A DNA stretch of 64,000 nt, taken from assembly GCA_964187785.1 (NCBI GenBank), contig OZ076410.1, forward strand, positions 83,452,001 through 83,516,000, given 5' to 3'. Below the pieces are notes generated by a model, which saw nothing but the letters and a program-made list of their open reading frames with translations, did not search any database and was not told where the DNA came from. Source of the stretch: Amphiscolops sp. MND2022. Lineage: Eukaryota. The position numbers were made by a program, and so were the translations under genes. The stretch's first letter is position 1. Each line of letters starts with the position of its first letter. Positions 1-53,156 of the stretch are shown piece by piece.

Positions 1-1109
1 TGCTATGAAATCTCGTATTAAAAACAGCTTATGCGAGGGAATTCCCTTATTATCGAAAATACATGACGATTAATTGACATGGATTTAAATTACCTTATGC
101 GAGCCAAAAAAATGTACCTTAAGTCAGAACTTTAAATCGCGGGATATTTGCAATACGCTTGTTCCACAATTTGAAATAGCTTGCAATTATCTTTCCCTAT
201 GAATTAGCGGAATTAGTGCGATGAAAACTTGACTGAAATGGGCGGATTCATTCATTTTATTCAATTTCGTAAACTTGTCAACGTCATGTTGACGCGTTTT
301 CTTGGCAGAATTTAAGCTTCATAAACTTGTCAACGTCATGTTGACGAGTTTTCTTGGCGGAATAGAGATTTTGACGCAATGCTGACAAGTATTTTAGAAA
401 TGAGTCTCTCGCTAGCTGCCGGAGCAGTGACGTCACATTGGCGGTACTACCAAGTAAATTGGTAGTAAATTGGAATGATTTCTAGCAATGCTATTAGTAT
501 AGGCGGATAATTGGAATGATTTTCTGGTACGGGTATGCGAGGCAATGACGTCAATACCTTCAAACTTGTCTGCGTCCTACTGACGACAAATATACATGTA
601 TTCTTATTTTCTCCGCTGCCTTGTTTACTCAGCGCAATATTGACGTCCTAAACCACGCTAATTGCTGTTCAAAGAGTAATTAGGCTGCTTTTCGAAGAAA
701 AGGCTTAATTCTTTTGGTGTGCCATCTCAGAGTATTTTTCATTTTAGATCTGATTGATGTTCTTTAGGGAGATGACTTTGACTATGCTTTCATTTAGATT
801 GGGCTATGGTTTTCTTATTTCGAAGCGTGTTTTAATTTAGTTTTCAGGTGGCGGATGTTATTGATTTTACGTGGCAAAAGCGTCTCAACCGGAAATGTAA
901 TATTTGTTTTAGCACATTCAATTCATTCTTTGTAATTAGTTTCATTTGAAATTTCCGTTGATCTGACGTATTTTTGTTTTCATAGTCACAGTTTATTTGT
1001 TAGTTTTAATAGTTAAAGTAAGTTTTTGCGAACCTCGCAGTGCAGCCGTGGCCTCTCCCGAAGCCGACTCTTAAACACCCACAACCCAGTCCGGGAGCGG
1101 ACTGTGACA
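1..1109 (-). repeat. 3' LTR (partial) of the deleted Gypsy element
   Basis: Starts TGTCACAGTCCGCTCCCGG (large LTR: TGTCACAGCCCGCTCCCGG). Blocks at ~690-740 and ~830-900 match the reverse complement of large-LTR 36700-36880. Confidence 0.75.
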
Positions 1110-1759
1110 GGGCCACTGTCATGGGTCTTATTGTCCTCCCTTGGAACTTCGGCTGGTAGAAAGGGTATTGTAGCTCGTAGACATTTGGGTCAACTGCCTG
1201 GTCCCTGGATGGAGGCATTACTGCTGGGCCCCTTTCTTCATCTAGATCGTTTAAAGATTCCTTCTTCTGCTCTCCCCAAACTCTCGGAGGGCCGCGGGGG
1301 GATTTAAAGTAAGAAAAGTAAGAGCTGGCATCGTCCTCTGTTGCTTGTCTTATGAATTCAGCAACTTTACTGCTAGTCAAGGAGGACGTTTCTTATTCGT
1401 GAGGTTTCTCTACGACGAACACATCTGAATTTAAAGAGGGGTCAGGGCTTTCTGGTGAGTCCGCTAATATTTCCTCTTCGCTTTCTGACTGAGAGTATTG
1501 GCCCGACTCTACTGTTTCAAAGCTTGTTTATGATTAACTGAGTTTCATCCTTTTACAATCGGTTTCCAGAGAGTTTAAGGATAGATCAAGAAATTCTTCC
1601 TCATCTGCCGCGGCTTCTGCTGACGAATTTAATATCTCTATCATTATTCTAGGGTATTTTTCGTTGTCTCTAGGCAGTGGGAGATTTTGTAATTTCGCCT
1701 TCTTCTTCGCTTGACGATGAAATGTCGATCTGTTCGTATATGTCCAATAAATTGTTCAT
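1006..1759 (-). pseudogene. Disrupted homolog of ORF3 (49501-50214)
   Basis: Translated pieces MNNLLDIYEQIDISSSSEEE / ADEEEFLDLSLNSLETDCKRMKLS / SKVAEFI..EDDASSYFS / VALSQSAPGLGCGC..GRGHGC align colinearly with ORF3 MNGLKNVYELIDISSSEDEEE / ADEEECFDISTDSLESSCKKLKLS / SRVAEYI..EDSGSYFS / VALSQPAPGLACGC..GRGHGC. At least one frameshift and one in-frame stop. Confidence 0.8.
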
Positions 1760-23300: not shown

Positions 23301-25163
23301 AGGATTGAATGGGGACCCTTTGGTGGAGAAAAAAATTGAAAAAGAATCTCACAATGCCGAAAAATGAAAGGACCTTTAGTCTTGCCCGGTACTTTATGTT
23401 GCGCTGAAAAAAAAGGAAAACTCTTTTGTTCAAGTTCCTTGAGCCAAATGGTCCAATTTGACACCTTAAAGTTTCGTAGAACTTTTAAGAACTATTTTGG
23501 TCAGTTTGTGTGGATTGAAAAAGGGCGAAGCGCCGACTAAAAGAGACAATACCATATAATTTTTCGTTGCATTATAAAGTATTCATAGTTTCGCCGATTG
23601 TATGTTGTGCGTTTTTCGGGTGGGCATAAATGTTCATTGGTTATTTTGTAATTTGGTTTGCAGGCTTTTGCAATTGGAACGGAGGACATGGACGGTTTGA
23701 CGTTTGGAGCTTCAGTTCTTCTCAGACATCTCACTGCCAGTGAATCGAAGAAACTTCCCATCAAAGAGTTCAATTATAACAAGGTTATTTCATTTGACTG
23801 AATCGGATTGAATATTGTCTCATTGAACAGATTTATTTTACATAGAAGTTGATAGTAGCGAGAGATGTTTAGTTCAGCATAAATTATAGGTCTTTTCTTT
23901 CAGATTTTAGAGGAGTTGCAACTGAACCGAGACGAATTCATCGATCTTTGTATCCTCATGGGATGTGACTATTGTGAATCGATCAAAGGTATTGGTCAGA
24001 AGAAAGCACTGGATTTGATCACGCAATACAGGTCTATCGAGAAAATCGTCGAGAACATTGGTAAATTTTTTCACAACCTTTTTTTTAAGTCGGCGCTGTT
24101 TGGAAAAAAATGCGGCTATTATTGTTGTTTGATTTTTACCCTGTTGAAGAGACCAAAAGTCTACAAAAGGGTTTATCATAAGATAGAACAAAATAGGCCC
24201 CTCCGGGGCACACTATTATTCCTGCTTTATACCTTCATTAATAAAAGAATCATATCTGGAATACCAACTCCTGTTTAATCATTATTTAGCGCACAATCAA
24301 ACGATGCTGGCTATGTGAACCACAAAATCGGTACCGAAAAGTCGGAGTTTTAACTTCTGAACAAGGCGCTGAAAAAATTTTTCTTGGCATTCAAAATCTT
24401 CAATTATGGAAGCTGCGAATCTTCAGCAAAAATTTCTTATTCAGTTTTATTAGTCACTCATGGCCAAAACCGGACAAGCAAATCAAAACAAAGACAAGTA
24501 GGCATCAAAGTTTAAACGTTAATTGGGTAATCAAGGTGAGACGCTTTTGTATAACTATGGTTTTGAAATGAATGTGGGGTGACATGATTTTGGGGTGAAA
24601 TGAACGCATATCCTACAATAAGCTTATGACCCAGAAAGGATCAAAGGAGTTCAAATTCTTGTTCGCTTTAATTTTTATGTAAATAAATTTGACAGTTTTC
24701 GGCACTGTGTGAAAAAAGTTTTCTCGCTTTGATTTTTTGATGTAGAGTGGATGGTCTGATGAATCAAACGAAGACTGCTACGGAAATCTTTTATATTTTA
24801 GATAAAACAAAGTACCCTTTGCCCGATCCCTGGCCATACAGGGATGCCAGGCGTCTTTTCCAAACTCCGGAGGTAACCTCCGGAAGTGAGCTGGACGTAA
24901 CAATGCCTGACGTGGATGAAGAAGGATTAGTACAGTTCATGGTTCATGAAAAGGGTTTCGCCGAAGACAGGATTCGAAACGGTGCTAAAAAACTCCTCAA
25001 AGCACGATCGGGAACTCAACAGATCCGACTTGACTCTTTCTTCAAATCGGCTCCAATTGTGAAACCAGCTGCAAGTCCCAAAGTCAAGCAAGAAAAAGGT
25101 GTGAAAGGCACCCCGAAAGCAAAACTGTCCAAAGTTACCAAGAAATCAATCAAGGGCAAATGA
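11371..25163 (+). CDS. FEN1: Flap endonuclease 1 (XPG/RAD2 family), 6 coding exons, 383 aa
   Basis: Exons 11371-11460, 11660-11862, 18306-18525, 23664-23783, 23904-24060, 24802-25163 total 1152 nt in frame with GT-AG junctions. Motifs [53 protein letters not shown]...IKGIG, and a C-terminal PIP-box QIRLDSFF. Confidence 0.97.
12352..12455. repeat. Miniature inverted-repeat element with GGAATAAGATCTAA motifs, related to the 8588-9534 MITE
   Basis: Three forward motif copies and inverted remnants at the right end; lies in FEN1 intron 2. Confidence 0.4.
12618..13097 (+). repeat. Pair of diverged ~60-bp direct repeats (~12618-12680 and ~13035-13097)
   Basis: tacggggactgttactgacagtgcaaggaggctctgcaccttgcaac vs tacgggaccgtcactgacactgcaaggacgctctgcagcttgcaac. 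Confidence 0.5.
13201..14060 (-). mobile_element. 3' fragment of a CR1/L2-type LINE in FEN1 intron 2
   Basis: Minus-strand [13 protein letters not shown], then ..[19 protein letters not shown]-type RT C-terminus, ending in a (TAC)n tail at 13201-13221. Confidence 0.7.
14740..15735. repeat. Dispersed repeat with CGGCACT(A/G)TGCGACTTTTT and AAGGGTCCCCC motifs, including a ~206-bp tandem duplication (15233-15438 / 15439-~15638)
   Basis: Near-identical tandem units read directly; ends in the family terminal motif. Related sequence in opposite orientation at ~23120-23420. Confidence 0.65.
16120..17100. repeat. Dispersed repeat family with AAAACTGTCCATACG motifs and a CGACTCCTTTACCGCACATGCGGCTC end; another copy at ~34790-35055
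   Basis: Shared motifs visible at both loci. Confidence 0.5.
19600..23050 (-). mobile_element. Heavily degraded LINE (ORF1 with PHD-like and CCHC motifs, ORF2 remnants) filling FEN1 intron 3
   Basis: Minus-strand [10 protein letters not shown] (~22120-22150), [15 protein letters not shown] knuckle (~21300-21345), RT-like YLTNRQ (~19895-19915); many stops and frameshifts; boundaries approximate. Confidence 0.55.
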
Positions 25164-35396: not shown

Positions 35397-36333
35397 TTAC
35401 TTCAAGTCACACAAAGGGTGAAACGGTTGATTTCCGATCGCATCGTGTAGATATTGCATCTCTTTGGTTTGAAAGTGAACGTAAAGCACGATGTATTGCT
35501 GCAAACCTAATGATGGTTCACCTCGGAACCAGTGAATTATATCACTTGCAACTACATCGCCGTTTGTTGTAATAAATTCAGTACTCTTATCAGTTTCTCT
35601 ATACACCCCCAACCACATCGAGTATGAACCAAATTTGCTGACAAAAAATTGCAGTTGTTCAGACGTTCCGTTTAAATCGGAAAATAATTTGCCGCCTGAT
35701 TTCACAGATGTCTTTGGCATCGAACCATCCCATCGTATCTGGTATAAATTTGAGCCAGTATAACGTCCGATGTGTCTCGTTTGAGCCCTTTAGTCCACCG
35801 TGCGCAGAATCAATGATGATTTGTCTGGCCTCCACTGCTTTGTACTCTTCTTGCGAATCAATCTCCACTTCAGATTGCCAAGAGCTCCAATGACGATCAA
35901 CTCTTTTCTTGTTTACTCTACAGTAACCAATGTTTTCATCGTCTTGGACATCTTTTTCTGTACCAGCTTCATTGCAAAAAGGTTGATAGTTTTGTGTCAT
36001 TCCATAGTAGAGACAACTCGGAGACTCTTGAATCAAAGAAAGATTTGTTCCGATTGAAAAAACATCTTCTGAACTTAGACCACAAACGTTTGGAAAGCAG
36101 AAATTGAACGACCGACACAGTGAAGTTTCAGCGCATCTCAAAGCACATTGACTTGGAGATATGGCTTTGCATTTATCAATGTTGCTTCCAGTCAACTGCA
36201 GGCCCTCCTTGAAATCTTCCCACGCCATGCTTCTTCTGGCTGCAACAGAAGTTCTCAATCCTTCGGTAGGTGACAAAAAGTGAGACATAAATGTGACCAT
36301 AAACAAAAACACACTTCGAAAGTGCATAACCAC
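35397..36333 (-). pseudogene. Secreted PAN/apple + C-type lectin domain protein, intronless, one frameshift at ~35700
   Basis: Signal-peptide-like N-terminus; PAN motif QCALRCAETSLCRSFNFC..VCGL; CTL start MGWFDAKDICE continuing in another frame as SGGKLF..MWLG...WFRGEP...LHD......PLC. Confidence 0.75.
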
Positions 36334-36470
36334 TGGTAAAGGTATCAGAATCTCAAACTGGGCAAAATTTAAAAAATGGAAATTTCGTGTCGGGACTAAA
36401 GACGAGGAAAGTGAAATTTATTTTGTTGGATGTGCAAAGTGCATGAACAATTTCGTCAGAAATACTATAT

Positions 36471-38786
36471 TGTCACAGCCCGCTCCCGGTCTGGCGTGTG
36501 GCTGTCGTCAGATGAAAATAGGACGGGGACATGGCTGCAACCTCAGATTCCCGAGATGGTAACTCGTTAAATTTAAAACTTAATAAACTGTGACTAAAAC
36601 ATACGTCAGTGCTGCGCATGCTATAAAATGATAATAGAAAACAGAAATCAAAATGAGCAAAATGATTTCACGCATTTCCGGCACGTCGTTCTTGTCTCGT
36701 CAAATTGGAAACATTCGCCACCTGAAAACTTAATTGAGGATACACATTAGAATAAAAGCCATAATCCGATCTAGATGAAAAATATCCAAAACAGTCTATC
36801 AGGAAAGAACACCAATAAGAACTAAAACAGGAAATACTTTGAGACGGCACGCTGAATTATTTTACGCCTTTCTAAGAAAGGCGGCTTAATTGCACTCTGA
36901 ACCGCAATCAATGCATAATAGGACGGTACCGCGCTGCTGAATAAACAAATGTTGGTATTACACGCAATTTTCAATATTTGTAGTGACGCCATTGACACGT
37001 CGTTGACTAGTTAACTAACTAGAATTAATCTAAATTACTCGTCGCTATGACGTCACAAACTAGGCAGCTAACCAGAACTTTATTCCAAATTGTGACGTCA
37101 GCACTTCGTCTTACTTGGTAGCTAGTCAGAAGTTCATTCTAAAATATGCGTCAGCTACTCGTCAAACTTGGCAAGCTGTCAAGCTAGCTAAGAAACTTGT
37201 CGTTATGTTGTCGCAAATCCATCAAAATAACTGTTTTCATCCATCCAGATTAACATGATGCGAGATGATTGTAACAGATTCTATGTAAACGATGCGCTCT
37301 TTTCAGACTAAAATGGGAAAAATACAAGGATATATCCACATTTTGTCGGGTAAATTATGACTAGATCAGAATCACTTAGGGACTAACTTAAAAGGAGAAT
37401 TTTTCCACTTCTAATAGAACAAAAGTCACGGTTTATTTCCTAACACTAAACAAATGTCGATATTTTACTACCTGAGGTATTTTTATATATTTGCTGTAAT
37501 TTGTGTCATAAAGCTGTTGTTGGATAAACCTTTGTACCATGAATTCATCAATCCATTCTACAAGACGATGTCATTGCGTTGCCTTATATTTATACTCGGA
37601 AGATTTTGTACCTGTTAATGTTATTAAAACTAAATGCTATTCCTCCAAATGAGATTGTTAATGCTAATGCAAGCTCATTTTACAATGCAGTTTAAAGTTG
37701 ATGTTTAAAGTTTGTTCTGTTAAATTTGATTTGTAACCTTGTCGCACTAGTCACGACAAGCCAGAGTTGGGGCATACACTTGCATCTAGTTTGTTGAGGA
37801 CTGTAAATTTAATTCAACCAAAAGATTGCGTCCCAAATTATTTCAAAACCTTTTCCTAGCATCGTTCAAATAACCTTAATTTGAAATTAGTCATCACAAT
37901 TCATCGAGTTGATTTCCAAATTGAATATTAGTTGTTCACGTCAGCGTCACCTCAGCGTCATTTTTCCCGCGAACCAAGTCAGTAAAACAGGGAAATATTT
38001 CCGGTTTGACAGACTGAAGTAATATCTACTTCCTGCTTGGGAGGAAAGCAAAAGGACGCCGAGCTGAAATGATGTGATCATGGTTGATGACTAATGCTAG
38101 ATTGGAATTGCCGTGTCTCAAAAATTGACGAAATGTCGACGCAAAATTGGGAACAAAATGATTTTTTTCATCGAAAATACAGGAAATGACTAATTGTTCG
38201 AGGAAAATTAGGATTTTAATCGTGATCAAATAAAGCTAGGAGGGTATATATAGGATGATTTTCATTGACTCGGGGACTCAGTCTTTTGCAATTGTACAAT
38301 TCAATTGAATTTTCAATTTCACTCTTGCCTTGTTTGTCAGAAAATCTTTGAAAGAAATTCAATTCTTCAAAATCAAACTTTTCTACAAAATGTCAACAAC
38401 AAGAAGCCAAAAAAGAAGGAACGATCAGCAAAGCACCAGTGAGAACGTAAGTGAAGGCTTGATTTCACCCATAGTAGTAGGGAATCCTTGTTCTTCGAAT
38501 CAGGACGATGAGGTAGCGGGGCCGTCTAAACCAAAATCCCCCAGGATCGAGAATAGTCTCCTTGAAAACTTTAGAGCTTCCTTAAAGGAAGAAATAACGT
38601 CAGAGATCAAAAATCTTCTTATCGAATCCCAGAAAGAGATGTTGAAACTTCTTAAGCCTGAAACAAGAGGGAACGTTAGAGAAAATACCGAAGAAGAGGT
38701 AGAAGAGGAAACTAGGAGTTTCTATACTCCAACAAAATCAGTTAGGATAAGTTCTATTCAAAACGACCCGATAATATGTCGTAACA
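36471..38786 (+). repeat. 5' LTR (2316 bp)
   Basis: TGTCACAG...CGTAACA; only 5 substitutions vs the 3' LTR seen by eye (37132, 37624, 37650, 38524, 38572) and no indels. Confidence 0.97.
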
Positions 38787-39829
38787 TGGTGACAGGAGTT
38801 CTAACCGATTCCACTAACCAACCAAAAAGAACGAAAGCCCGGTCTCAAAGTCAACCGGCGTCAAAAGAACGCCCAATTGTAGCGAGAACTCTGTTTGCGT
38901 CGGAAAAAGGCGACAGCACCACGCTGCCTATGCCAAAAGCGTTAACGGCATCTCTCCCAACGTACGACGGGAAATCGGAAAAATTTGAATTATTTGAGGA
39001 CCTTTTCCGTAACAACATCAAAATGTATCCACACCTCACGGAGATACAAAAAATCAATTATTTCCATTCACTGCTACGAGGAGACGCCCTCCAGGCGTTT
39101 TGCAACATAGAAGACACGAAAAAGGATTCCCTTGACGAAATAATGACAATTTTCAAGCGACGTTTTGGAGACTATTTGTCCATGGCCAAGGCACGATGCG
39201 AATGGGATGCGCTCAAATTCGATCCCTCGAACCAGAAACTCCATGAATTTCTAGACATACTTCAAAAAACTGCCAAGGAAGCTTTTGGCTCTGAAGCACA
39301 ACAATTTATTGATAAGGCAATCTATGCAAAGATGCCAGACCACGTCAAGAAAATACTAAACAAGGCATACCTCGAGGATAAACCTTATAATGATATAGTA
39401 CTCCACCTAGAACGCGAAATGAGACTTAACGGCCTCGGAACACCGGATGAGGTAACCCTAGTACCACTAAACAAGGTAGAACCAGCTCCAGCAAAAACTG
39501 AGTCCAAACAAGCCGACAGCACGACGCAAAATGTCAGAAAAGGATATTGCTTCTACTGCAACAAATTTGGACACTATAAGGCAGAATGCAGAAAAATGAA
39601 GAGAGATAAATGGATGCAAACCAGGAAAAACAATGGTCAAACTAACACGAGTGCAGGCAAACAGTTCAAATGCGAAACATGCGGCAAACCCCACAAAACG
39701 GAAGATTGTTGGAACGGAGCCAACTCTGCCAACGATCCACGACCTAAGCGTCACAATAACCCGGAATCAAAAAGGGACGTTCCCGTCCAACCAACGACAG
39801 CTAACCCTGTCACGGAATCAAAAAACTAG
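38390..39829 (+). CDS. gag: Gag (479 aa), initiating inside the 5' LTR
   Basis: Open ORF with capsid-like core (LPTYDGKSEKFELFEDLF) and two knuckles, CFYCNKFGHYKAEC and CETCGKPHKTEDC; the ATG at 38390 is 397 nt upstream of the LTR end. Confidence 0.92.
   Translation: MSTTRSQKRRNDQQSTSENVSEGLISPIVVGNPCSSNQDDEVAGPSKPKSPRIENSLLENFRASLKEEITSEIKNLLIESQKEMLKLLKPETRGNVRENTEEEVEEETRSFYTPTKSVRISSIQNDPIICRNMVTGVLTDSTNQPKRTKARSQSQPASKERPIVARTLFASEKGDSTTLPMPKALTASLPTYDGKSEKFELFEDLFRNNIKMYPHLTEIQKINYFHSLLRGDALQAFCNIEDTKKDSLDEIMTIFKRRFGDYLSMAKARCEWDALKFDPSNQKLHEFLDILQKTAKEAFGSEAQQFIDKAIYAKMPDHVKKILNKAYLEDKPYNDIVLHLEREMRLNGLGTPDEVTLVPLNKVEPAPAKTESKQADSTTQNVRKGYCFYCNKFGHYKAECRKMKRDKWMQTRKNNGQTNTSAGKQFKCETCGKPHKTEDCWNGANSANDPRPKRHNNPESKRDVPVQPTTANPVTESKN
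38787..38798 (+). other. Primer-binding site TGGTGACAGGAG
   Basis: Begins with TGG (complement of tRNA CCA) immediately after the LTR CA; conserved in the relative at 2372-2383. Cognate tRNA not identified. Confidence 0.8.
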
Positions 39830-42800
39830 ATACGCCGCGCCTGCGCTTCGGGGAAACAGTAGACGCGAGGGCGTATTCACCAAATGATCCCCCCACTAAC
39901 TACACCAACGAAACAACCACAGAACGTGACGGAACTCCAACAGAGGACTGGCTGAGACGTCAAGCACTCGCTTCCATACGAAGACCTCTCATACAAACCG
40001 AAAAGGAAATAACACAAGTTGAAGATCATAGAGATGACCACAAACAACACCCAAATCCTCTCATCCAGCCACCCCTCACCAACACAACACAATCCACCAT
40101 AACTCAAACAGAACAAACCGAAAACGCCCTCGACGACCAACCATCGTCAACACAGACAAAGGAAGATACCTATGGCTCCACCCAAGCACCTATCTTCCCA
40201 GAGGATTTCCCCACATCTCTTAACTCTATCAAAGAGTATGTTACTGAAAAAGATGGAGAGATGTACTTACCACTCCACTCCACCATAGTCCTCAAAAATA
40301 GAAGGAGAATGCTGTACTTGCCGCTCGAATTCGGCGAGATAACAATGGATGGACTCGTCGACTCAGGCGCATTCATCAATGCTATGTCCTGGTCAGATTA
40401 CAACGCAATCAAAATGAACAGTGATAGTTGTGTCATAAAAGAATACCCCCAACCCCCCTTCAAGATCGAATGCGCAAACGCACAACTAGAACAACCAATA
40501 GCCACGGCAGACATCCAGTTCAATATTGGAACATATACCTTCACGGATACCTTTGTCATCCTATCGAAAACATCATTCCCCATCATAGGACTAAACTTCA
40601 TGAGAAATCATCAAGCAGTAATTGACACTGCCAACGGAACCATCAATTTCCCGCACGTCGAAATGACGCTAGCCATGACGGACGAGATGAAAAATGCAAC
40701 CCGAAACCGCTCCAAATAATGGCAGAAGGAAATCAAACCCTACCGCCCCAACAAACAACAACAGTGAACGCAATAGTAATAACCACAAACATGCATGACG
40801 TCACTGGAGCGGTACAACCACTACCACAATTTGATGAAGCAGCAACAATCATTGTCGCACCAGCACTAGCGACAGCCCACAATAAAAGGCTCAACATCCG
40901 AATCGCCAACTTAACGGATTTCCCTCATACAATAAAGAATCACACAAAACTGGCCGAACTACAAATCTTCAGACCCGAGGACACGAAACAAATACGTCCA
41001 GTAGACGCCGCCGCACTCAAATTGCTAGAAGATCCTGATGACACCCACATGTACGTCAATGAACTCATGAAAGCCAACGAAACTGAACAAGGTGATGAAA
41101 ATTTCTGGTTCCCCACACCTGAGAATCCGGGAAACGAAGAAGAACATACACCAATCCAACGACGGATCTTGAAAGAAATTCGCGAACTCATCCAAAAAGA
41201 AAAACTCGACCCAACACAAGATCAAGAATCACGAAAGAAATTTCTAGACATGTTCCAATGGGAAGGCTCACAAATCGAAGGAAGTGACAGAAAGCAACTC
41301 GAGCAAACGATAGTCGAATACAACGACATCTTTGCGCGTCATCGCCTTGACATCGGAATCAACAATAACTTCAAAGTCAAATTAACTCCGAAAGATGAGC
41401 GGCCAATTTACACACAAAGTTTGCCAGTACCAATCAACTTGAAAGAGGACCTAACGGTTGAATTGGCGCTAATGCACAGATACGGCATCATAACGACATT
41501 ACCATTTTCGAAATATGCAAGTCCAATTTTCGCACAAAGGAAACCAAATGGCAAACTACGTCTACTCGTCGACCTGCGAAAAATAAACGCACTAATATCG
41601 GATGACTACATCAATAATAACCACCCAGTCAGCACCCTGTCAGACGCAGCCCGAAACATATGCAGGTAAAAAGCTATTCTGCAAACTAGACTGCTCCCAA
41701 GCATATCACTGCTTGCAAATGGCAGACCAAAGATCTATAGAGATGTTAGCATTCAACTTCGCAAGCAGAACATTTGCCTACAAACGGCTGGCACAAGGAC
41801 TAAGCAGAGCACTATCGGCATTTTCAAGTTTCATGAGGGAATATTTGGATAAAGTAATCAAAGCTGACCAATGTGCGCAATATGTGGATGATATCGGAAT
41901 TGCTGCCAATTCTGTGACGCAACTGATACGCAACATACGGGCCGTATTTGAATGCATCCGAAGAGCGGGACTCAAATTGACGATAGAGAAATGCCATTTT
42001 GGAGTGACTGAAGTCGAATTCCTCGGCAGAACGATTACACCGCACGGAATCGCTCCCCAAGACCACAAAATCCAGAAATTTTTAGCCAATGTGAGATTTC
42101 CAAAATCAAAGAAACAAGTACAGAGGTACATTGGTTTCGTCAACTATTATCGCAACTACATCCCGCGATTATCCGAAAAACTGCTCGGATTTTACGAACT
42201 ATTGAAAGCAGACAAACAAATTAAGGTCACAGAAGAACTACTCGATCACTACAAAGCGATCAACGCAGCATTGGCGCAAGCCTGCGGATTGGCTCTCAAA
42301 CAACCAATCACAGGACGACAATACATCCTAATGACGGACGCCAGTTTCCGAGCCTCGGGCTATGCGTTGATGATCGAAGAAGACAACGACAAAAAACTCA
42401 ATTCAAAAAAGAAGACATTTGCGCCAGTCGCATTCGGGTCGAAAGTATTCTCCCCAGCACAGCTAAAAATGTCAATTTATTGCAAGGAATTTTTAGCAAT
42501 ATACCACGCCTTCCTAGAATACAGCCATATCCTGTGGGAAACAACTCTACCGACCTTAGTGATGACAGACAACAGATCAGTAACGCGGTTTTTCCAAACA
42601 AAAGCCATACCGCCTACCTTATGGAACGCGTGCGACTATGTGCTACAATTCAACTTTCATATAATGCACGTGGCTGGTACGCAGAATACAGCAGCCGATT
42701 TCCTATCGCGAATCGATCTCAACCCCAAGGAGAGAGTCGAATTAAAAATCAGAGAGGACATCACAATTCGCCCAATCCAAGTAAACCTACAGTCTACTGA

Positions 42801-44757
42801 CGTCGCAGATGAAGAACAACTTTTCTTTCTTCCAGATGAAACGATTGAAACCGAAGAAGACATTCTTCTGCAAAAAGAACAAGCAAGACAAAACGCGCGC
42901 GACGAACACACGACAAAACTTAAACTAGCCATCAAAGAGACTAACCCAATCCCAATAAACAAAGCTTCCTACACCTTCGGGGCAATAAAGGAAGATGCGC
43001 GCATTAGAGTCGAGCAAGACTCCAGTTTAGTCCTCAAAGCTATCAAGAAAAAGTTAATATGTGAAGAATACGACAAACATCTCTTGCAGACTGACCCGAC
43101 TGCCAAACGTCTCCTAGTCCATGAAAACAGACTAATCGTAAAAGATGGAGTACTAATGAGCAAATACTACGGAGAATGTGGCCAAGTCACTCATCATCAA
43201 ATCCTAATCCCTGAGCATCTGATCACAGAACTCCTGAAAGCAATCCATGGACAAATGGGAAAACACCCTGGGATCACAAAAATGATCCAAGAATGCAGAA
43301 CAAAGTACTACTCCCCTGGACTAGCAAAAAGAATCAAACAATGGGTAATGCAATGCGAAGATTGCATCAGATACAAAAGAATCAATAACAGCCAAATCAG
43401 ACCAAAAATGATCAACAACACAGAACACGTTTTGGGCCCGGAAGACATCTTAGAAATCGACATACTGCCCAATCTACCAAACTCGGCGGGATACCAAAAC
43501 ATTGTCACAATGATTGATGTATTCTCACGCTACCTATTCGCATACCCAACGCAGAATGCCACAGCGAGGACAATTGGACGATGTATAGTCGACGTCATGA
43601 CAAGACATGCCTACTTGCCGACAATGATTCTATCAGACAAAGGGTCGCAATTCAGATCAGAAGTAGTCGCAGAAATAACTCAAATACTCGAAATTCAAAT
43701 CAGCCACGCGTCTACGAAACACGCACAAACGATCGGAATTTTGGAAAGAACACATGCCTCAATCAAAACTGCTCTAAGAATATCGACGGGTGAAAGACGC
43801 TCGATGTGGCACAAGTATGTCCAAATTGCAGTAATGAACTATAACACAACCTATCACGAGACTTTAGGCTGCGAACCGTCTACAGTGTTCCACGGACGTA
43901 TACCTTACAACGTTCTCGATTTAAAACTCGGCATAAAGCCAAAGTGGAAAACCACGCCCAATTCGGACATTGCAGAACAACTCCAAAAGCAAATTGATGA
44001 AGTACGTGCGACAGCAAAAGATAACATCATGCTGTCTTACCTTAAATACAAAAAATACTACGACAAGAAAGCGTCTGCAGCTCCACTGAAAATCAATGAT
44101 TATTGCTACATACTCAATCCGAAAGCCGACAATCAGTCGACAAAGTTCGCTTTTCAAGATTGCATTTGGACTGGACCATATGTGGTAATAAAAGTACTCT
44201 CAAACAATAACTACACAATCCGGAAAATCGGCACCAGATACACACAAACGCTGCACCGAATCCGAATACGACCCTATAAGCCAGAACAGCGCATACCCGA
44301 TGTCACAGTACGAGCAAATGAATACCTTCCTGATCCAGACGTCAAAGTATCGCATAACGAATGGTACGCGGTATCTTGGGAAACGGATTTTGGAAAGCAA
44401 ATAGACGAACATGACACGCTAGGAAAAACAGGAAACGAAAAACAAGTAATGATACAAGAGGTGACGAACACGCATGACGAAAAGACGACGCAGCAAGTCT
44501 CGGAAAATCAGACTGGAGACATGAATGACGCAACGCCGCCGTCTCCGGATTTTTCAAACCTTACTGAAGACGCGGGGGATAATCCGTACATATTCCGCCC
44601 CCCACCCATTGAAAGTCCACCTATTCCCCCGAAATCACCGCCTACAGTAGTCGGATATAATCCGAGAAAAGTAGCAAAATACAACTTGCGACCTAATCCT
44701 AAACCTAATGCTAATCCTGACTTCAGACGACTTGACGCATTGACTACGACTCACTAG
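39805..44757 (+). pseudogene. pol: Pol (aspartic protease, RT, RNase H, integrase) with two frameshifts (~40690, ~41650)
   Basis: LVDSGA protease; RT QYVDD; RNase H MTDAS; integrase HHCC (H..MGKH...CEDC) and D..D(SDKG)..E core; split over ORFs 40261-40719, 40719-41669 and 41602-44757. Confidence 0.92.
39820..39874 (+). promoter_or_regulatory. -1 programmed ribosomal frameshift signal (A AAA AAC plus downstream hairpin)
   Basis: Heptamer 39820-39826 in correct phase just before the gag TAG; the -1 frame is open from 39805 into the protease; GC-rich stem at 39832-39874 (ACGC/GCGT, CGCG/CGCG, CTGC/GTAG) after a 5-nt spacer. Confidence 0.8.
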
Positions 44758-44945: not shown

Positions 44946-47900
44946 TCAGTCGCCTTTCGAACTAGATGCAGTTTTCTCACCAGCCGCTTTTCCAACACTC
45001 TTCCCACTTCTCGACACAGCTGGTTTGGCAGTGTTCTTCCCACTCTTCTTATCATCTTTTCTGACAACTGATTTGTGACTACTTGACCCAACTCCAGAGG
45101 ACGCAAGTTTTTTCTGATCCTTTTTATGACCCAGCAAGGACACCATACGCGAAGGCACCTTTCCTTTGTCCGATCCATCGACACTGACAGTAGCCGCATC
45201 AGACCCGACGCTTGAAGACTGACTACGAGAACGAATAACAGATGACGTCCCAGTACCACTTACAGAATGCGAGCCCCGACTGCCACCATCACGAAGTCGC
45301 TGATAAGACTCCTTTTTCTTGCCATCCAGATATGCATCAAACAATCCCTGGTAACGCTCCACAAAAGTGCTATGTCCACCGCTGCAAATTCCTTCCCAAG
45401 GATCGAAAGTACCAGACGACATGAAATCGCGCGAACTAGCGATAGCTTCCCGAACTTTATCCATCGTATGCTTAGTGAAGAAAGCACTAAGCTTATAATC
45501 AGGAGCAGAAACACAACTTTGCACCCCACGAATGCAAGACGTGACGACGATGGGAGGGACAGCACAGTTTTTTAAATCAAAATCGACAGTTGGATAGTCA
45601 GCGAGACGCCTCTGTACAACCAAGCAACATAATCTAAACACTCGATATAGATTTTTGCGCGACTGCAACCCATAATCGGCGACCAAGTAAGCAACAATGT
45701 CCTTGATGTCCTCAGCACTACGCTCGTCATTCACATGTCGTGAGCGCACATCCACCACAAAAGTAACAAACTCCTCAGAAGCCGCTTTCAACTCGACAGA
45801 TGACAAGGACCCACTTCTCTCCAAAACTTGAGATAACTTCTTGAATGACATGAAGACGTGCTTGTCATCCCCCTCCAATAACAGCTCAGGACAAAAGCAG
45901 TATATCCCTTCCATAAACTGATTGGAAACGGCACACTGTGAGAGAATTACCTCCACAAGATGATCAAAGAACTCACGACACCGTCGACGGAAGTCCAGGA
46001 ACTCGCTTGTCCCGCGTCGCAGCAAATCAACCCCAAAGTCATGAAGCACAAGAAAACTATCCATATCAGCTTTTTCAAAAGCATCAAGCTTTGACACGTC
46101 CATGAAACTTTCCCAAGCTTCCAGAGGGGGCAATGACGACACCTTCCGACTTCGTGACAGAAGACAATACACAAACTGACATAATTCGAAATAATGGTGG
46201 AATCCATAATCCGCTCGTTTGGTCGTCTGCTTCTTAAAAAAACTGGCATCTAAACACAACCCAAATCCGAGACTCATACCAACCCTCCGCCTATACGACA
46301 AGAGATGACATGCAATACTTACGCAACTCGAGGACATGCACCAGGAGCCCCAGACGAAGTTCATTTGTATTCTCACTATAGACCAGAGTGTCCGTTCCTC
46401 GCATCTAAAATATAACCAACTGGATTATTCAAATACACCAGCCACCGAGGACACTATGCATTACAACTACAAAGGAATATAAAAGGAAAAGAGAAAACAA
46501 AACCCCCCCCTCTCCCTTACTCTACAAAAACAATTACCCTATCAGTCGCACTCCGGAGATGTTTGGGGCCTGTACATCGAACAAACACTCGCACAAACTC
46601 CCAGATGGACAGTAGATCCACGATCACGCCTCGCAATTGTGGGAACTCAACACGACCAACGATGACGCACTGACGCAAGTTAATGACGTCTTCCATCCAT
46701 GACTCTTGTAGAGCCCCTCGTAAACGCAGCAACAGAAAGTCTATCATGCTGTTAACTTCCAGCATTCCAAACACAGCCTGATCCGCCTGACGGTAACACT
46801 GGAGGAACACATCTGTGTCAAATTCAGAGTACATCACGAAGGTACGGCCGTCAACCCGATTGTCGCTCAGCACACGTGTGAGCGTCGGACTAGCACCCTG
46901 CAGAGAGATGGGCAACTGACAAGAGATGACGCTATCAAGAATCCGGGAGAGACAAGACAGCTCAGCACAAGGAACACGCTGACCAAGCGCCTCAACACGA
47001 ACACAGATGGACTGCAACTCGGCGTCGTCCCAGGTGCGCACAATACAATACAACCCATCGTGATGCTCTTCAAATGTGACACTGTAATCTTTGAACGCAT
47101 CCACTCGAGCAAAAAGAGAACGTAGCACCCGAGGGAACAGTGCACGGCAGATCAACGACTAAAACAAGAAAGACACCCTTTTGACTTACTGCCAAACCGA
47201 CCGTCTCTACCCCCTCCCAACAATGCACAAAATCCAATACAAAACCCTACAACTTCAAAGAACAACAATAAAACTTACCAGAGTTTCAGCGCGACTCCAC
47301 ATCAAATTATACAACGGGTTCTCCGGCCCGAGGGTCGCTCGGAAACACCCCCACAGTTTCCGCAGTAGCACATAGCTACCACCAAGTCGCAGCAGCTCCG
47401 TCAAACAATTCACAAGGGTCATCAAAGGAATAGTTGAATCCACCTTGCTACATGCGGGAAGCAAATCTTCGGGGAAGCTGAAACCTTCAGGCTTCTCCTT
47501 ACAAGGACGGGAAAGGTACTCGTCACGTTGTGCCGGCGACAGCTCCATCGGATCCATAAGGCGATTGAAAACTGGGAGGTCGTGATGCACTCGATACGTC
47601 ACATCCAAATTCCAATGCCTGGGTCCCATAAAGTGCCGAGCCAACTCTCCAGCTCCGCGCGTCTCCATTGAAACATCGCGTCCACAAATCGTGCAAAAGA
47701 AGGATGTCGCCACTCCAGTACTTGACCCAGTGACGAAGAGCTCGAAGACAGGATTGCCCTTCACCATATCCTTCCGAAGACGCTTCCGAGCACTGTACGT
47801 CCGAACGCGACGACGTGTTGGCCCAGCCTTCTCCAAGCTCGCCTCCATGCGACTGACTAATTCCTCAAACCCTACAATAGACAACTCAGAATTACAACCA

Positions 47901-48973
47901 CATTGCGCATACCAAAAGACCAAACCACACCATCAAACCAACATAACCAAGAATGGAAAAGTTAAACTACCATCTAGAATAAAAGGATACTAACGAGCAA
48001 CAAACGGCTCCACAGTCCGGGTCTCCAGTTCACCAGCAACAACCTCTCCCAGATGCGCGACCTGCTGACGAGACAAATGACCAACACCCTCATCACTGGT
48101 GACGATCTCGAAGCTGCGTTCCTGCTCTTTGGGAGGCATTAGGGTCACGCGACGTCGCTTCCCAGACGAATTCTTAGCAGCCACGGCCGCAACACCACTA
48201 ACTACAACAACAAGAAACCCATAAATACCCCACGAGGAAAACACAACAACCCACCCAACAAAAAGAGAGGGAAAAAGAAGGAAAGAAGAAAGGAAAAGAA
48301 GAATTTTAACCTCGTGTAGGTGACTGTGTAGGTGTCAGCTGCTTAGGACTACCACTGTAATGAGGAAGAAAAGCACTGAAGCGAGGAGATGTCGTCGCAT
48401 TCACTCCAGTCTCTGCCTCAGACATTCCTTCCCCTCCAACTACCTTCTTTTCTCCGGGGGGACAAGCAATCTCACCTCCGTGAGATGGAACAACTACAGT
48501 CGCAGCCTCAGAAGGAACACCCCCAGCAGCAAAGCACTTAAGGTCAGGCAACAACTGCGACAAGGGAACGTCGAGCCCTTCGGTTTCAGTGTCTTCGGCA
48601 GCAATTTGACCCTCTGGCGGGTCAACCAAGAGAACATCACCAGTTGACTGATCAACAGCCAAGGTATCAGCAGTAGCTCCAGAAGCTGGCAAATAGGCTT
48701 CCTGTACAGGAAGTGGCACTAAAACATCATTTCGAATATCGGCGCGCCAGAAAATCTAAGCTATGGAAGTGTGATGCAGAAAAGGCCTAACTGTAATCAA
48801 CATACTATCCATGAAAGCTTAATGGATTGAGAAATGATGAACTCACCAGCAACTACTCGCCGAACCTCATCAGCGTCACTGTGGCGCACATCAGTCTCCG
48901 AAAAGACGAAGTTTGTTTCATTGCCACTCTGGGCTCCGGGATCATGGCGGGACGAAATGTGATCACCGTCCAT
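44946..48973 (-). CDS. Spliced antisense cargo gene, 7 exons, 1113 aa; zinc finger + hAT-transposase-like fold, catalytic motifs apparently lost
   Basis: Exons (minus) 48973-48847, 48718-48311, 48201-47995, 47871-47279, 47158-46538, 46404-46323, 46249-44946 total 3342 nt = 1113 codons + TGA. All six introns (73-133 nt) are GT-AG and phase-compatible. Contains CTIC-x15-H-x5-H (CTICGRDVSMETRGAGELARHFMGPRH). Confidence 0.85.
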
Positions 48974-49019
48974 CACAAACAGCAGTGAATCTGAAAACAG
49001 AACGAGGATGAAAACAACA

Positions 49020-49330
49020 ACCAAATTGACGTCATCATAACGGTGACAAACTTAAAGTTGGCAAACCACCAACGAAAATGACGCTGGCATAACGTCAGTA
49101 CCAAAAGTTGATTGGAAAATCAGCGAAATCGACGTCGGCATAACGTCGACAAAAAGGTTACTGGATTATTAATCCTATAATCTAAAATGACGTCATCATA
49201 ACGGTGACAAAACAAAAGCTAGCTAAGCTAGCGAAAATGACGTCAGCATAACGTTGACAAGTTTGGCTAAAGCGGATTAATTTAATTTGCAGCCAATAAA
49301 AACACGACGTTATCAAAACGTCAACACCTG
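49020..49330. promoter_or_regulatory. Array of ~6 TGACGTCA(T/G)CATAACG(G/T)TGACAA-like motifs between divergent ORFs; candidate bidirectional promoter
   Basis: Copies near 49025, 49078, 49130, 49187, 49237 and 49305, lying between the antisense ATG (48973) and the ORF3 ATG (49501). Confidence 0.55.
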
Positions 49331-49500
49331 TTAATTGGAAAGGATTAAAAGGATTAAAATGATTGTTTAACCAATCAGAATGAAGGGATTTATCCTGAAA
49401 TTCGCCTTAATCCAAAAAATAATCCTAAGTTCATTGTGGAACAGTCAACAAGTAGAATACAGCAGCACTGAAGACTACAGACTTAACAATAGCTACAAAA

Positions 49501-50214
49501 ATGAACGGACTCAAGAACGTCTATGAACTCATCGATATATCTTCAAGCGAAGATGAGGAGGAAATTCTGAAACGAGCTTCGACGCCCATTCCTCGCAAAA
49601 GTGTCCCCAACTATAGAATAATACTACAGATGTCACACTCGTCGAATGAAGCCACAGCGGACGAAGAGGAATGTTTCGACATCTCAACGGATTCCCTCGA
49701 GTCAAGCTGCAAAAAGCTAAAACTTAGTTCCAGCCTGGAATCAATTGAATCAGAGACGCACGCCCCGCAACAGGACCCTATAAGAATTCGGAAGGAAGAA
49801 CTGCCAGACAGCCCAGAAAGTCCCGATGAGAGCATGAGTTCCGATGTATTTGTAGTGGAAGAATCAACAGAGTCAGCCCAATCGATAACAAGCAGCAGAG
49901 TAGCAGAGTATATTGAAAAAATACACCAAGAGGACTCAGGCTCATACTTCAGCACACCTCCCGGAACGCCAAAGAAGATCAATTTCCGGCCCATAAGCCC
50001 GCTGAACGACTTAGAAGACCCAAGCTTCACCCGCTCGACAGCAGTTCACTATCCTGGCCCTCTCACAACAAACTTCATGATGAGACAACCTGGGAGAGCC
50101 GTTTTCCCCAGAGGAGTGGCCCTGTCACAGCCCGCTCCCGGTCTGGCGTGTGGCTGTCGTCAGATGAAAATAGGACGGGGACATGGCTGCAACCTCAGAT
50201 TCCCGAGATGGTAA
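49501..50214 (+). CDS. ORF3, 237-aa acidic/Ser-rich protein with a Cys/His C-terminal motif encoded in the 3' LTR
   Basis: Intact ATG-to-TAA ORF; last 30 codons inside the LTR; a colinear homolog exists at 1006-1759; no signal peptide or TM segment. Confidence 0.85.
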   Translation: MNGLKNVYELIDISSSEDEEEILKRASTPIPRKSVPNYRIILQMSHSSNEATADEEECFDISTDSLESSCKKLKLSSSLESIESETHAPQQDPIRIRKEELPDSPESPDESMSSDVFVVEESTESAQSITSSRVAEYIEKIHQEDSGSYFSTPPGTPKKINFRPISPLNDLEDPSFTRSTAVHYPGPLTTNFMMRQPGRAVFPRGVALSQPAPGLACGCRQMKIGRGHGCNLRFPRW

Positions 50215-52438
50215 CTCGTTAAATTTAAAACTTAATAAACTGTGACTAAAACATACGTCAGTGCTGCGCATGCTATAAAATGATAATAGAAAACAGAAAT
50301 CAAAATGAGCAAAATGATTTCACGCATTTCCGGCACGTCGTTCTTGTCTCGTCAAATTGGAAACATTCGCCACCTGAAAACTTAATTGAGGATACACATT
50401 AGAATAAAAGCCATAATCCGATCTAGATGAAAAATATCCAAAACAGTCTATCAGGAAAGAACACCAATAAGAACTAAAACAGGAAATACTTTGAGACGGC
50501 ACGCTGAATTATTTTACGCCTTTCTAAGAAAGGCGGCTTAATTGCACTCTGAACCGCAATCAATGCATAATAGGACGGTACCGCGCTGCTGAATAAACAA
50601 ATGTTGGTATTACACGCAATTTTCAATATTTGTAGTGACGCCATTGACACGTCGTTGACTAGTTAACTAACTAGAATTAATCTAAATTACTCGTCGCTAT
50701 GACGTCACAAACTAGGCAGCTAACCAGAACTTTATTCCAAATTGTGACGTCAGCACTTCGTCTTACTTGGTAGCTAGTCAGAAATTCATTCTAAAATATG
50801 CGTCAGCTACTCGTCAAACTTGGCAAGCTGTCAAGCTAGCTAAGAAACTTGTCGTTATGTTGTCGCAAATCCATCAAAATAACTGTTTTCATCCATCCAG
50901 ATTAACATGATGCGAGATGATTGTAACAGATTCTATGTAAACGATGCGCTCTTTTCAGACTAAAATGGGAAAAATACAAGGATATATCCACATTTTGTCG
51001 GGTAAATTATGACTAGATCAGAATCACTTAGGGACTAACTTAAAAGGAGAATTTTTCCACTTCTAATAGAACAAAAGTCACGGTTTATTTCCTAACACTA
51101 AACAAATGTCGATATTTTACTACCTGAGGTATTTTTATATATTTGCTGTAATTTGTGTCATAAAGCTGTTGTTGGATAAACCTTTGTACCATGAATTCAT
51201 CAATCCATTCTACAAGACGATGTCATTGCGTTGCCTTATATTTATACTCGGAAGATTTTGTACCTGTTAATGTTAATAAAACTAAATGCTATTCCTCCAA
51301 ACGAGATTGTTAATGCTAATGCAAGCTCATTTTACAATGCAGTTTAAAGTTGATGTTTAAAGTTTGTTCTGTTAAATTTGATTTGTAACCTTGTCGCACT
51401 AGTCACGACAAGCCAGAGTTGGGGCATACACTTGCATCTAGTTTGTTGAGGACTGTAAATTTAATTCAACCAAAAGATTGCGTCCCAAATTATTTCAAAA
51501 CCTTTTCCTAGCATCGTTCAAATAACCTTAATTTGAAATTAGTCATCACAATTCATCGAGTTGATTTCCAAATTGAATATTAGTTGTTCACGTCAGCGTC
51601 ACCTCAGCGTCATTTTTCCCGCGAACCAAGTCAGTAAAACAGGGAAATATTTCCGGTTTGACAGACTGAAGTAATATCTACTTCCTGCTTGGGAGGAAAG
51701 CAAAAGGACGCCGAGCTGAAATGATGTGATCATGGTTGATGACTAATGCTAGATTGGAATTGCCGTGTCTCAAAAATTGACGAAATGTCGACGCAAAATT
51801 GGGAACAAAATGATTTTTTTCATCGAAAATACAGGAAATGACTAATTGTTCGAGGAAAATTAGGATTTTAATCGTGATCAAATAAAGCTAGGAGGGTATA
51901 TATAGGATGATTTTCATTGACTCGGGGACTCAGTCTTTTGCAATTGTACAATTCAATTGAATTTTCAATTTCACTCTTGCCTTGTTTGTCAGAAAATCTT
52001 TGAAAGAAATTCAATTCTTCAAAATCAAACTTTTCTACAAAATGTCAACAACAAGAAGCCAAAAAAGAAGGAACGATCAGCAAAGCACCAGTGAGAACGT
52101 AAGTGAAGGCTTGATTTCACCCATAGTAGTAGGGAATCCTTGTTCTTCGAATCAGGACGATGAGGTAGCGGGGCCTTCTAAACCAAAATCCCCCAGGATC
52201 GAGAATAGTCTCCTTGAAAACTTAAGAGCTTCCTTAAAGGAAGAAATAACGTCAGAGATCAAAAATCTTCTTATCGAATCCCAGAAAGAGATGTTGAAAC
52301 TTCTTAAGCCTGAAACAAGAGGGAACGTTAGAGAAAATACCGAAGAAGAGGTAGAAGAGGAAACTAGGAGTTTCTATACTCCAACAAAATCAGTTAGGAT
52401 AAGTTCTATTCAAAACGACCCGATAATATGTCGTAACA
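50123..52438 (+). repeat. 3' LTR (2316 bp)
   Basis: Near-identical to 36471-38786 and followed by the TSD TATAT. Confidence 0.97.
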
Positions 52439-53020: not shown

Positions 53021-53156
53021 ATATCTTGTGTTTGTACGAGACTATTCTGACTAAATATAGCAAAAAGTTGTTTTTCATTGATAGAGAATTCTCTATCAAT
53101 GAAAAACAACTTTTTGCTATATTTAGTCACAATAGTCTCGTACAAACACAAGATAT
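53021..53156. repeat. 136-bp spacer-less palindrome (68-bp arms, one mismatch) centred on GAATTC
   Basis: 53021-53088 is the reverse complement of 53089-53156 except at one position. Confidence 0.95.

Follow-up and report, generated by a model that had tools for sequence, protein, structure and literature searches.

What is encoded by the open reading frame that precedes the 3' LTR of an env-less retrotransposon and runs on into that LTR, and what might its product do for the element? The question is raised by ORF3 of the acoel Amphiscolops sp. MND2022, which was analysed within a stretch of 64,000 nucleotides (positions 83452001–83516000, from a genome of 1.07 Gb; hereafter the window; Table 1). 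ORF3 sits in a young Ty3/gypsy element, which has paired LTRs, a target-site duplication at both flanks and a PBS at 38787 that begins TGG. The Pfam matches of pol above the cut-off follow the gypsy order (RVT_1, RT_RNaseH, Integrase_H2C2 and rve), and the protease and zinc knuckle of the element scored under the cut-off.

Table 1. Positions, within the window, of the element and of the features of ORF3 and its surroundings.
Feature	Position	Strand	Remarks
Broken ORF3 copy in a related, internally deleted element	~1011..1759	-	comparison relative of the original prediction
5' LTR	36471..38786	+	TG...CA ends, 2316 nt; contains an orphan ORF3-tail copy and the first 133 gag codons
gag and pol (PR-RT-RH-IN)	38390-44757	+	gag 38390-39829; pol in three reading frames here
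Spliced multi-exon antisense gene	44946..49051	-	encodes a CxxC..H..H finger; lies opposite ORF3, head to head
Candidate bidirectional internal promoter	49020..49500		CRE TGACGTCA sites; CCAAT at 49293 and 49371; initiator-like TCATTGTGG at 49431
ORF3, acidic, mostly disordered accessory gene	49501..50214	+	237 aa, before the 3' LTR
SIM-like motif, hhXh core at residues 10-13 (LIDI), then Ser/acidic run	49528..49563	+	core 22/22, flank 15/22 lineages
K-K/R-x-K/R-L basic NLS-like motif, residues 71-75	49711..49725	+	21/22 lineages; shuffled mean 0.3-1.7
SPxSP proline-directed phosphosite cluster, residues 104-108	49810..49824	+	20/22 lineages
Sole predicted helix, residues 131-144	49891..49932	+	AlphaFold2, low confidence
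T/S-P-x-G (residues 152-155) and L-N/D-D-L (168-171)	49954..50013	+	each 22/22 lineages
Codons 201-215, PPT region and LTR end	50101..50145	+	DNA-level constraint (third positions 9%/14%)
3' LTR	50123..52438	+	5 mismatches to the 5' LTR; TATAT target-site duplication at both element flanks
Codons 216-234, basic CxC-x8-H(-x-C) tail in U3	50146..50202	+	protein-level constraint
AATAAA then CTGTGAC, just past the ORF3 stop	50234..50246	+	candidate poly(A) signal of the ORF3 mRNA

The gag start codon (38390) lies inside the 5' LTR, at LTR position 1920, and a TATA box is found at LTR position 1775; together with the ORF3 tail, this start supports the claim, made in the original prediction, that the LTR is coding at both ends. 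The LTR-borne gag codons (38390–38786 and 52042–52438) start approximately 145 nt past the TATA box, which is similarly placed in other lineages, and gag of the yeast element Ty1 likewise starts within the LTR. The gag and pol genes share 25 nt, read in two different frames, and pol of this recent insertion is broken over three frames (39805–44757), yet ORF3 is intact. Elsewhere in the window, we take the exons at 11678–25163 (+) to be those of a FEN1-like (flap endonuclease) host gene, the fragmentary reverse-transcriptase-like ORFs at 5619–8102 (+) to derive from a non-LTR element, and the ORFs just upstream of the insertion (35397–36417, −) to resemble a secreted PAN/C-type-lectin-like protein. 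A near-perfect, spacer-free palindrome of 136 nt, with arms that are 99% complementary, occupies positions 53021–53156.

As had been claimed, ORF3 encodes 237 aa and, because the LTR begins at 50123 inside the codon of Leu208, its final 92 nt (stop included) are LTR sequence. The C-terminus quoted in that claim stops short of the true end, ...GCNLRFPRW, which lies three residues further on. The description of the product as acidic, Ser/Pro-rich and TM-free was borne out: the protein is rich in Ser, Glu and Pro, and it contains no TM-like stretch, since the highest hydropathy over 19 residues is 0.76 in the window copy and stays between 0.33 and 0.96 across 22 lineages. Judged by hydropathy alone, the env-type combination of a signal peptide and a TM domain is absent from all 22 lineages. 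These lineages were obtained from the same genome, in which a protein search with ORF3 yielded 3821 candidates; the best 150 were scored, and 130 of these best-scoring matches, a biased sample, have no in-frame stop. Further searches from divergent members and direct fetches provided 122 loci (some places being duplicated), 78 of which carry an ORF3 that is intact by our filter. The intact set collapses to 45 copies at <97% identity and to 22 lineages at <85%, which are 29–70% identical to the window protein.

Pfam contains no family for ORF3 at E≤1 (the best match across 18 members, at E 0.087, is unrelated), and the same search revealed neither a catalytic domain of the GDSL or DEDDy type nor a RING domain, the tail having just three Cys and one His. 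Pfam, PDB and AlphaFold2 gave no sign of an enzyme domain or of a fold that would bind DNA, the PHROG search returned no match, the ESM Atlas search gave nothing usable, and no relative was found among metagenome and viral contigs. PDB sequence matches to NEMO and ferritin were weak (E of at least 0.036) and were dismissed as compositional. A profile search of 1.84 billion proteins returned 118 matches; the 36 inspected all resemble the ORF3 family or LTR read-throughs, the ten that were looked up are all unnamed ENA proteins, and the two most distant full-length matches are 100% identical to loci of the same genome. ORF3 is an orphan family that is so far confined to one genome, and the notion of a novel small non-env accessory protein is supported.

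The claim of selection on the protein had rested on seven synonymous differences from a relative within the window, all of which are present in the sequence. Because the reading frame of this relative is broken, by a shift close to codon 27 and by internal stops, the selection test was rebuilt on intact copies. The dN/dS ratio for the whole of ORF3 was 0.16 among 16 lineages, at synonymous sites near saturation, while 15 independent pairs at unsaturated distance gave 0.21 for codons 1–207 and 0.27 for codons 216–234; the tail is under purifying selection (Fisher p ~1e-9) and is no more constrained than the remainder of ORF3. The lowest values were those of residues 8–16 (0.05) and 70–75 (0.07), calculated for the pS 0.35–0.6 class with its 39 non-independent pairs. 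At four-fold third positions, the share of differing pairs is 9% for codons 201–207 and 14% for codons 208–215, as against 64% for codons 216–234 and 66–68% in other parts of ORF3. Since third-position divergence splits the overlap in this manner, the PPT and LTR end is frozen as DNA, whereas CxC...GRGHG is kept as protein. Amino-acid identity in codons 216–234 is 65%, the alternative frames of the tail carry stops in 13–21 of the 22 lineages, and RNA folding over the PPT and tail is no better than that of shuffled sequences (z −0.31). Protein-level selection on the shared tail thus stands for CxC...GRGHG but not for LSQPAPGL, which is largely a by-product of DNA-level conservation. The original prediction had called for a dN/dS comparison and had named the lack of a synonymous excess as grounds for its own rejection; such an excess was found. 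ORF3 also diverges far faster than pol, with 52–67% identity where pol keeps 94–96% (four lineages), and this pace fits a host-facing protein. Among closer lineages, pS is 0.46–0.65 in pol and gag (41596–44757 for pol) versus approximately 0.7–0.85 in the accessory module (44946–50214), a difference that would reflect either codon constraint or exchange of the module.

The order pol, antisense gene, ORF3 was observed in six of ten flanks of ten kb; in the remaining four the element is deleted or truncated, yet ORF3 is present. The presence of the ORF3 tail in deleted elements proves nothing, because it would be kept in cis regardless. Five loci (L106, L112, L114, L119 and L122) hold derivatives of the element with internal deletions or tandem repeats: L114 retains gag and ORF3 only, L106 consists of ORF3-LTR units in tandem (a 4.76-kb repeat), and in L112 the promoter-ORF3 block is doubled. 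Two further loci (L042 and L045) combine an ORF3 body like that of one lineage with a tail like that of the GHG-G lineage, a mosaic structure that suggests recombination at the LTR junction.

The antisense neighbour is likewise conserved. All seven other lineages share the donor position of its 120-nt intron (47278–47159) and six of the seven show a matching acceptor, and its exons display pN of 0.19–0.42 against pS of 0.67–0.85. One fixed exon chain across the gene gave no open frame, only single junctions being supported. Atlas leads for the finger are zf-C2H2_12 and zf-BED (0.89), and the last exon is predicted to be folded and helical (pLDDT 69), with no family match. An origin of this gene from a hAT transposase was considered and rejected: structural comparison had suggested it through one match with Hermes, long but weak (Z 4.5, rmsd 7.9, 189 residues), and it was supported neither by Foldseek nor by searching 14 hAT ORFs of the host with an HMM nor by a profile comparison with 12 of these (probability ≤3%). 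ORF3 is a real conserved accessory gene within an unusual two-gene module.

The region between the two genes carries promoter-like motifs. The CRE motif TGACGTCA is present in 17 of the 22 upstream regions (520 nt) and in 19 of the 22 U3 regions, with shuffled totals below one (palindromes being scored twice in both the data and the shuffled control). CCAAT boxes lie upstream of ORF3 at similar distances across lineages, and an initiator-like motif (TCATTGTGG in the window copy) precedes the ORF3 ATG by 38–94 nt in 12 of 22 lineages versus 0.1 in shuffles. A TATA motif is not enriched upstream of ORF3 in the 22 lineages, and an acceptor-like motif, found in 2 of 22 regions, shows no excess over the shuffled mean of 2.9. 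In 16 of 22 lineages an AATAAA stands no more than 70 nt beyond the stop codon (shuffled mean 4.8, maximum 9), and CTGTGA follows in 19 (shuffled mean 1.2). Because genomic transcription probably starts well downstream of it in the LTR, the genomic RNA has to pass this early-U3 AATAAA without ending there, which counts against the proposal made below. The CTGTGAC of the window copy (50240–50246) is the reverse complement of the first bases of the LTR (50124–50130), and no folding excess was found. The simplest reading of these signals is that a bidirectional internal promoter would drive a short mRNA specific to ORF3; it is also conceivable that these CRE and CCAAT sites act on the antisense gene alone.

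AlphaFold2, supplied with 22 sequences, modelled ORF3 with a mean pLDDT of 51 and a single helix. The protein is strongly polarised in charge, its first 150 residues having a net charge of −8 to −29 and its last 45 of +4 to +8 across the 22 lineages. Short motifs were scanned by pattern and, because the lineages are related, every conserved motif counts as one evolutionary event. Residues 10, 11 and 13 are I, V or L in all 22 lineages, giving an hhXh core (a SIM core being hhXh or hXhh with I/V/L as h), and at least three D/E/S/T residues follow it in 15 of them (shuffled mean 1.8), the acidic flank being missing in the four most distant lineages. In one lineage the core reads VIDL, which is identical to the SIM core of KSHV K-bZIP. 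The cited part of the source of the SIM consensus describes it as degenerate, with many matches that are not real SIMs (PMC8616421). No additional conserved SIM-like site was found in the 22 lineages with the patterns used, and a reading with several SIMs was dropped since the extra sites were not conserved or not above shuffles. The host genome has a SUMO gene, an exon of which is 83% identical to SUMO of Convolutriloba macropyga and 80% to that of Symsagittifera roscoffensis, which makes a convolutid host most likely. When ORF3 residues 1–35 were modelled in complex with SUMO from an acoel, a protein 98% identical to the exon of the host, the score was 0.12. The K-K/R-x-K/R-L motif, for its part, is NLS-like.

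ORF3 is open and under purifying selection clade-wide, always follows the antisense gene and crosses the PPT into U3. As the best explanation, with the chances evenly balanced, we propose that ORF3 is a nuclear accessory regulator, which would activate or de-silence the element via SUMO-marked chromatin. The steps of this proposal differ in strength. It is probable that ORF3 would have its own short unspliced mRNA, running from the internal CRE/CCAAT promoter to the early-U3 AATAAA, and very probable that the product would be a disordered nuclear protein under the control of phosphorylation; its basic motif would provide for nuclear entry. That the N-terminal motif binds SUMO seems reasonably likely; it would thereby contact SUMO-marked chromatin factors. 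In the cited parts of earlier studies, SUMO-SIM contacts recruit SetDB1/Wde in piRNA silencing (10.1101/533091), and herpesviral ICP0 and K-bZIP employ SIMs against silencing (PMC8616421). The mechanism that we favour, at even odds, is that ORF3 would serve as a scaffold that boosts transcription of the element. It would do so by blocking silencing that depends on SUMO or, alternatively, as a co-activator of the LTR and of the internal promoter with its CRE sites; it would in this manner act on two promoters with common CRE sites. More tentatively, the basic Cys/His tail might form a nucleic-acid or partner binding module, maybe by holding zinc with three ligands or by bridging two molecules. 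HTLV Tax acts via LTR CRE sites, which is a likeness to the present proposal. An extended version, according to which one CRE-driven bidirectional promoter would make both a SUMO-binding disordered ORF3 and a spliced antisense zinc-finger protein that jointly target the element promoters and undo SUMO-dependent heterochromatin, appears unlikely.

Several other functions would make use of the same features. ORF3 could be a cofactor for nuclear import and integration, with its tail joining the cDNA-integrase complex and its SIM and NLS steering this complex to SUMO-rich chromatin. The SIM-like, NLS-like and basic-tail motifs fit such a role just as they fit a regulator, and nuclear import of the pre-integration complex has been proposed for plant aORFs, in the section cited (PMC7264820). 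The separate candidate CRE-driven unit, however, suits an early regulator over a stoichiometric particle component, and divergence so much faster than that of pol fits a host-facing protein, which makes the cofactor role improbable.

A second possibility is that ORF3 is mainly a zinc-finger-like protein in which the CxC-x8-H-x-C tail constitutes one four-ligand site, as the original prediction had suggested. All 22 lineages do have C217, C219 and H228, and 20 of them also have C230 (as do 41 of the 45 copies), with both codons in use at every tail Cys and His position. However, exact pattern counts of LTR ends with the N/S-LRFP type of tail identified 325 GHG-G ends versus 443 GHG-C ends (reversed controls 0), and because many GHG-G ends are paired approximately 13.7 kb apart they belong to full-length elements, such that the fourth ligand is missing from a sizeable clade of full-length copies. 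Four invariant ligands, as expected of a Cys3His zinc site, do not occur among the 22 lineages, AlphaFold2 without metal predicts no fold for the tail (pLDDT ~48), and there is no family match. A four-ligand finger is therefore not essential, which weakens the suggested site; the tail would not be a classical four-ligand finger, a site with three ligands or a bridged one is possible, and a mainly zinc-finger-like ORF3 is quite improbable.

It is also quite improbable that ORF3 acts on the host cell rather than on the chromatin of the element, manipulating the cell cycle or protein turnover of stem or germ cells via docking of cyclins, kinases or ligases. Conservation of the proline-directed sites in 20–22 of 22 lineages and a motif-rich, disordered build that is generally known from viral hub proteins would be in keeping with this role, but the full CDK consensus at residue 156 is present in just 10 of 22 lineages and an FBW7-type degron in 13, RxL does not exceed shuffles, and LxCxE is lacking in the 22 lineages. 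SUMOylation sites, antiparallel SIMs, PxDLS and CaaX were similarly not conserved or not above shuffles in these lineages. A Nef-like membrane adaptor, anchored by lipid on the CxC motif and by a basic aromatic end, would account for the basic tail with its terminal aromatics and for a genomic overlap as in nef (cited part of PMC11076291), but constraint on the protein is strongest at the NLS-like and SIM-like motifs, a CaaX end is absent in 22 of 22 lineages and the invariant His would be left unexplained; this adaptor is very improbable. Finally, ORF3 could be open only as a side effect of constraint on DNA or RNA at the PPT and LTR, with no useful protein made. The frozen codons 201–215 agree with this idea, but it is largely refuted by saturated synonymous sites elsewhere, a dN/dS of approximately 0.2 and the lack of a folding excess, and is exceedingly improbable.

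A nuclear regulator of the element would bear on the question of how acoel LTR retrotransposons, which make up about half of one sequenced acoel genome (cited part of PMC9911081), stay active against host silencing, for which ORF3 is a small conserved candidate. If the reading of the SUMO module is true, it would represent an animal retrotransposon-encoded anti-silencing system at the SUMO step; in plants, the anti-silencing protein VANC derives from a DNA transposon (cited part of PMC13547354). Should ORF3 prove to be an ordinary cofactor, it would still constitute a new orphan family, so far from one genome only. In either case, the element is an env-less retrotransposon with the layout of a complex retrovirus: a candidate internal promoter, a sense accessory gene across the PPT and U3, and a spliced antisense gene. 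A literature search, limited to sources outside subscription journals and repeat databases and to parts of the texts, retrieved nothing on the ORF3 family or on a SIM-bearing accessory protein of a retrotransposon.

Accessory ORFs located past pol and ahead of the 3' LTR are of a known kind, in both sense and antisense orientation (PMC7264820). The sense aORF-3S or env-like ORFs of Athila and Bagy2 resemble ORF3 in orientation, in their location in the gap between pol and the 3' LTR and in their presence in most copies of a family, whereas ORF3 has no TM stretch or sign of an acceptor, is separated from pol by the antisense gene and extends into U3 (PMC7264820). The antisense aORFs of maize Grande (gene23, which is nuclear and has its own promoter) and Botrytis Boty occupy the same position as the acoel antisense gene; the acoel element differs in having a second, sense gene at a common candidate promoter region, ORF3 itself not being antisense (PMC7264820). 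The non-env ORF3s of bdelloid rotifers (GDSL, DEDDy, coiled coil, TM) are also family-specific and carried by an invertebrate LTR retrotransposon, but they are recognisable enzymes or TM proteins with reportedly spliced messages, in contrast to the disordered, motif-based and family-less acoel protein (PMC5408684). HIV-1 nef, like ORF3, extends over the PPT, att site and U3, while ORF3 places only about 30 codons in U3, has no homology to nef and possesses motifs that point to the nucleus (PMC11076291).

The regulators of complex viruses offer possible parallels in function. Foamy virus tas/bel2 is a 3' accessory gene with an internal promoter, of which the candidate promoter at ORF3 would be the counterpart; Tas, which carries an acidic activation domain, targets both the internal promoter and U3 (PMC3798896). 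The differences are that ORF3 has no sequence similarity to Tas (none in Pfam or PDB, the inspected profile matches all being of the ORF3 family) and no identified DNA-binding domain, that the acoel element lacks env, and that its candidate promoter, of the CRE/CCAAT type, shows no TATA excess and has an antisense gene on its other side (PMC3798896). HSV-1 ICP0 and KSHV K-bZIP combine an hhXh core with adjacent Ser and acidic residues, as ORF3 does by sequence, but ORF3 has neither a RING nor a bZIP domain and its SUMO binding is only predicted (PMC8616421). By analogy, ORF3 may work like a regulator of the Tas or ICP0 type while belonging to neither family.
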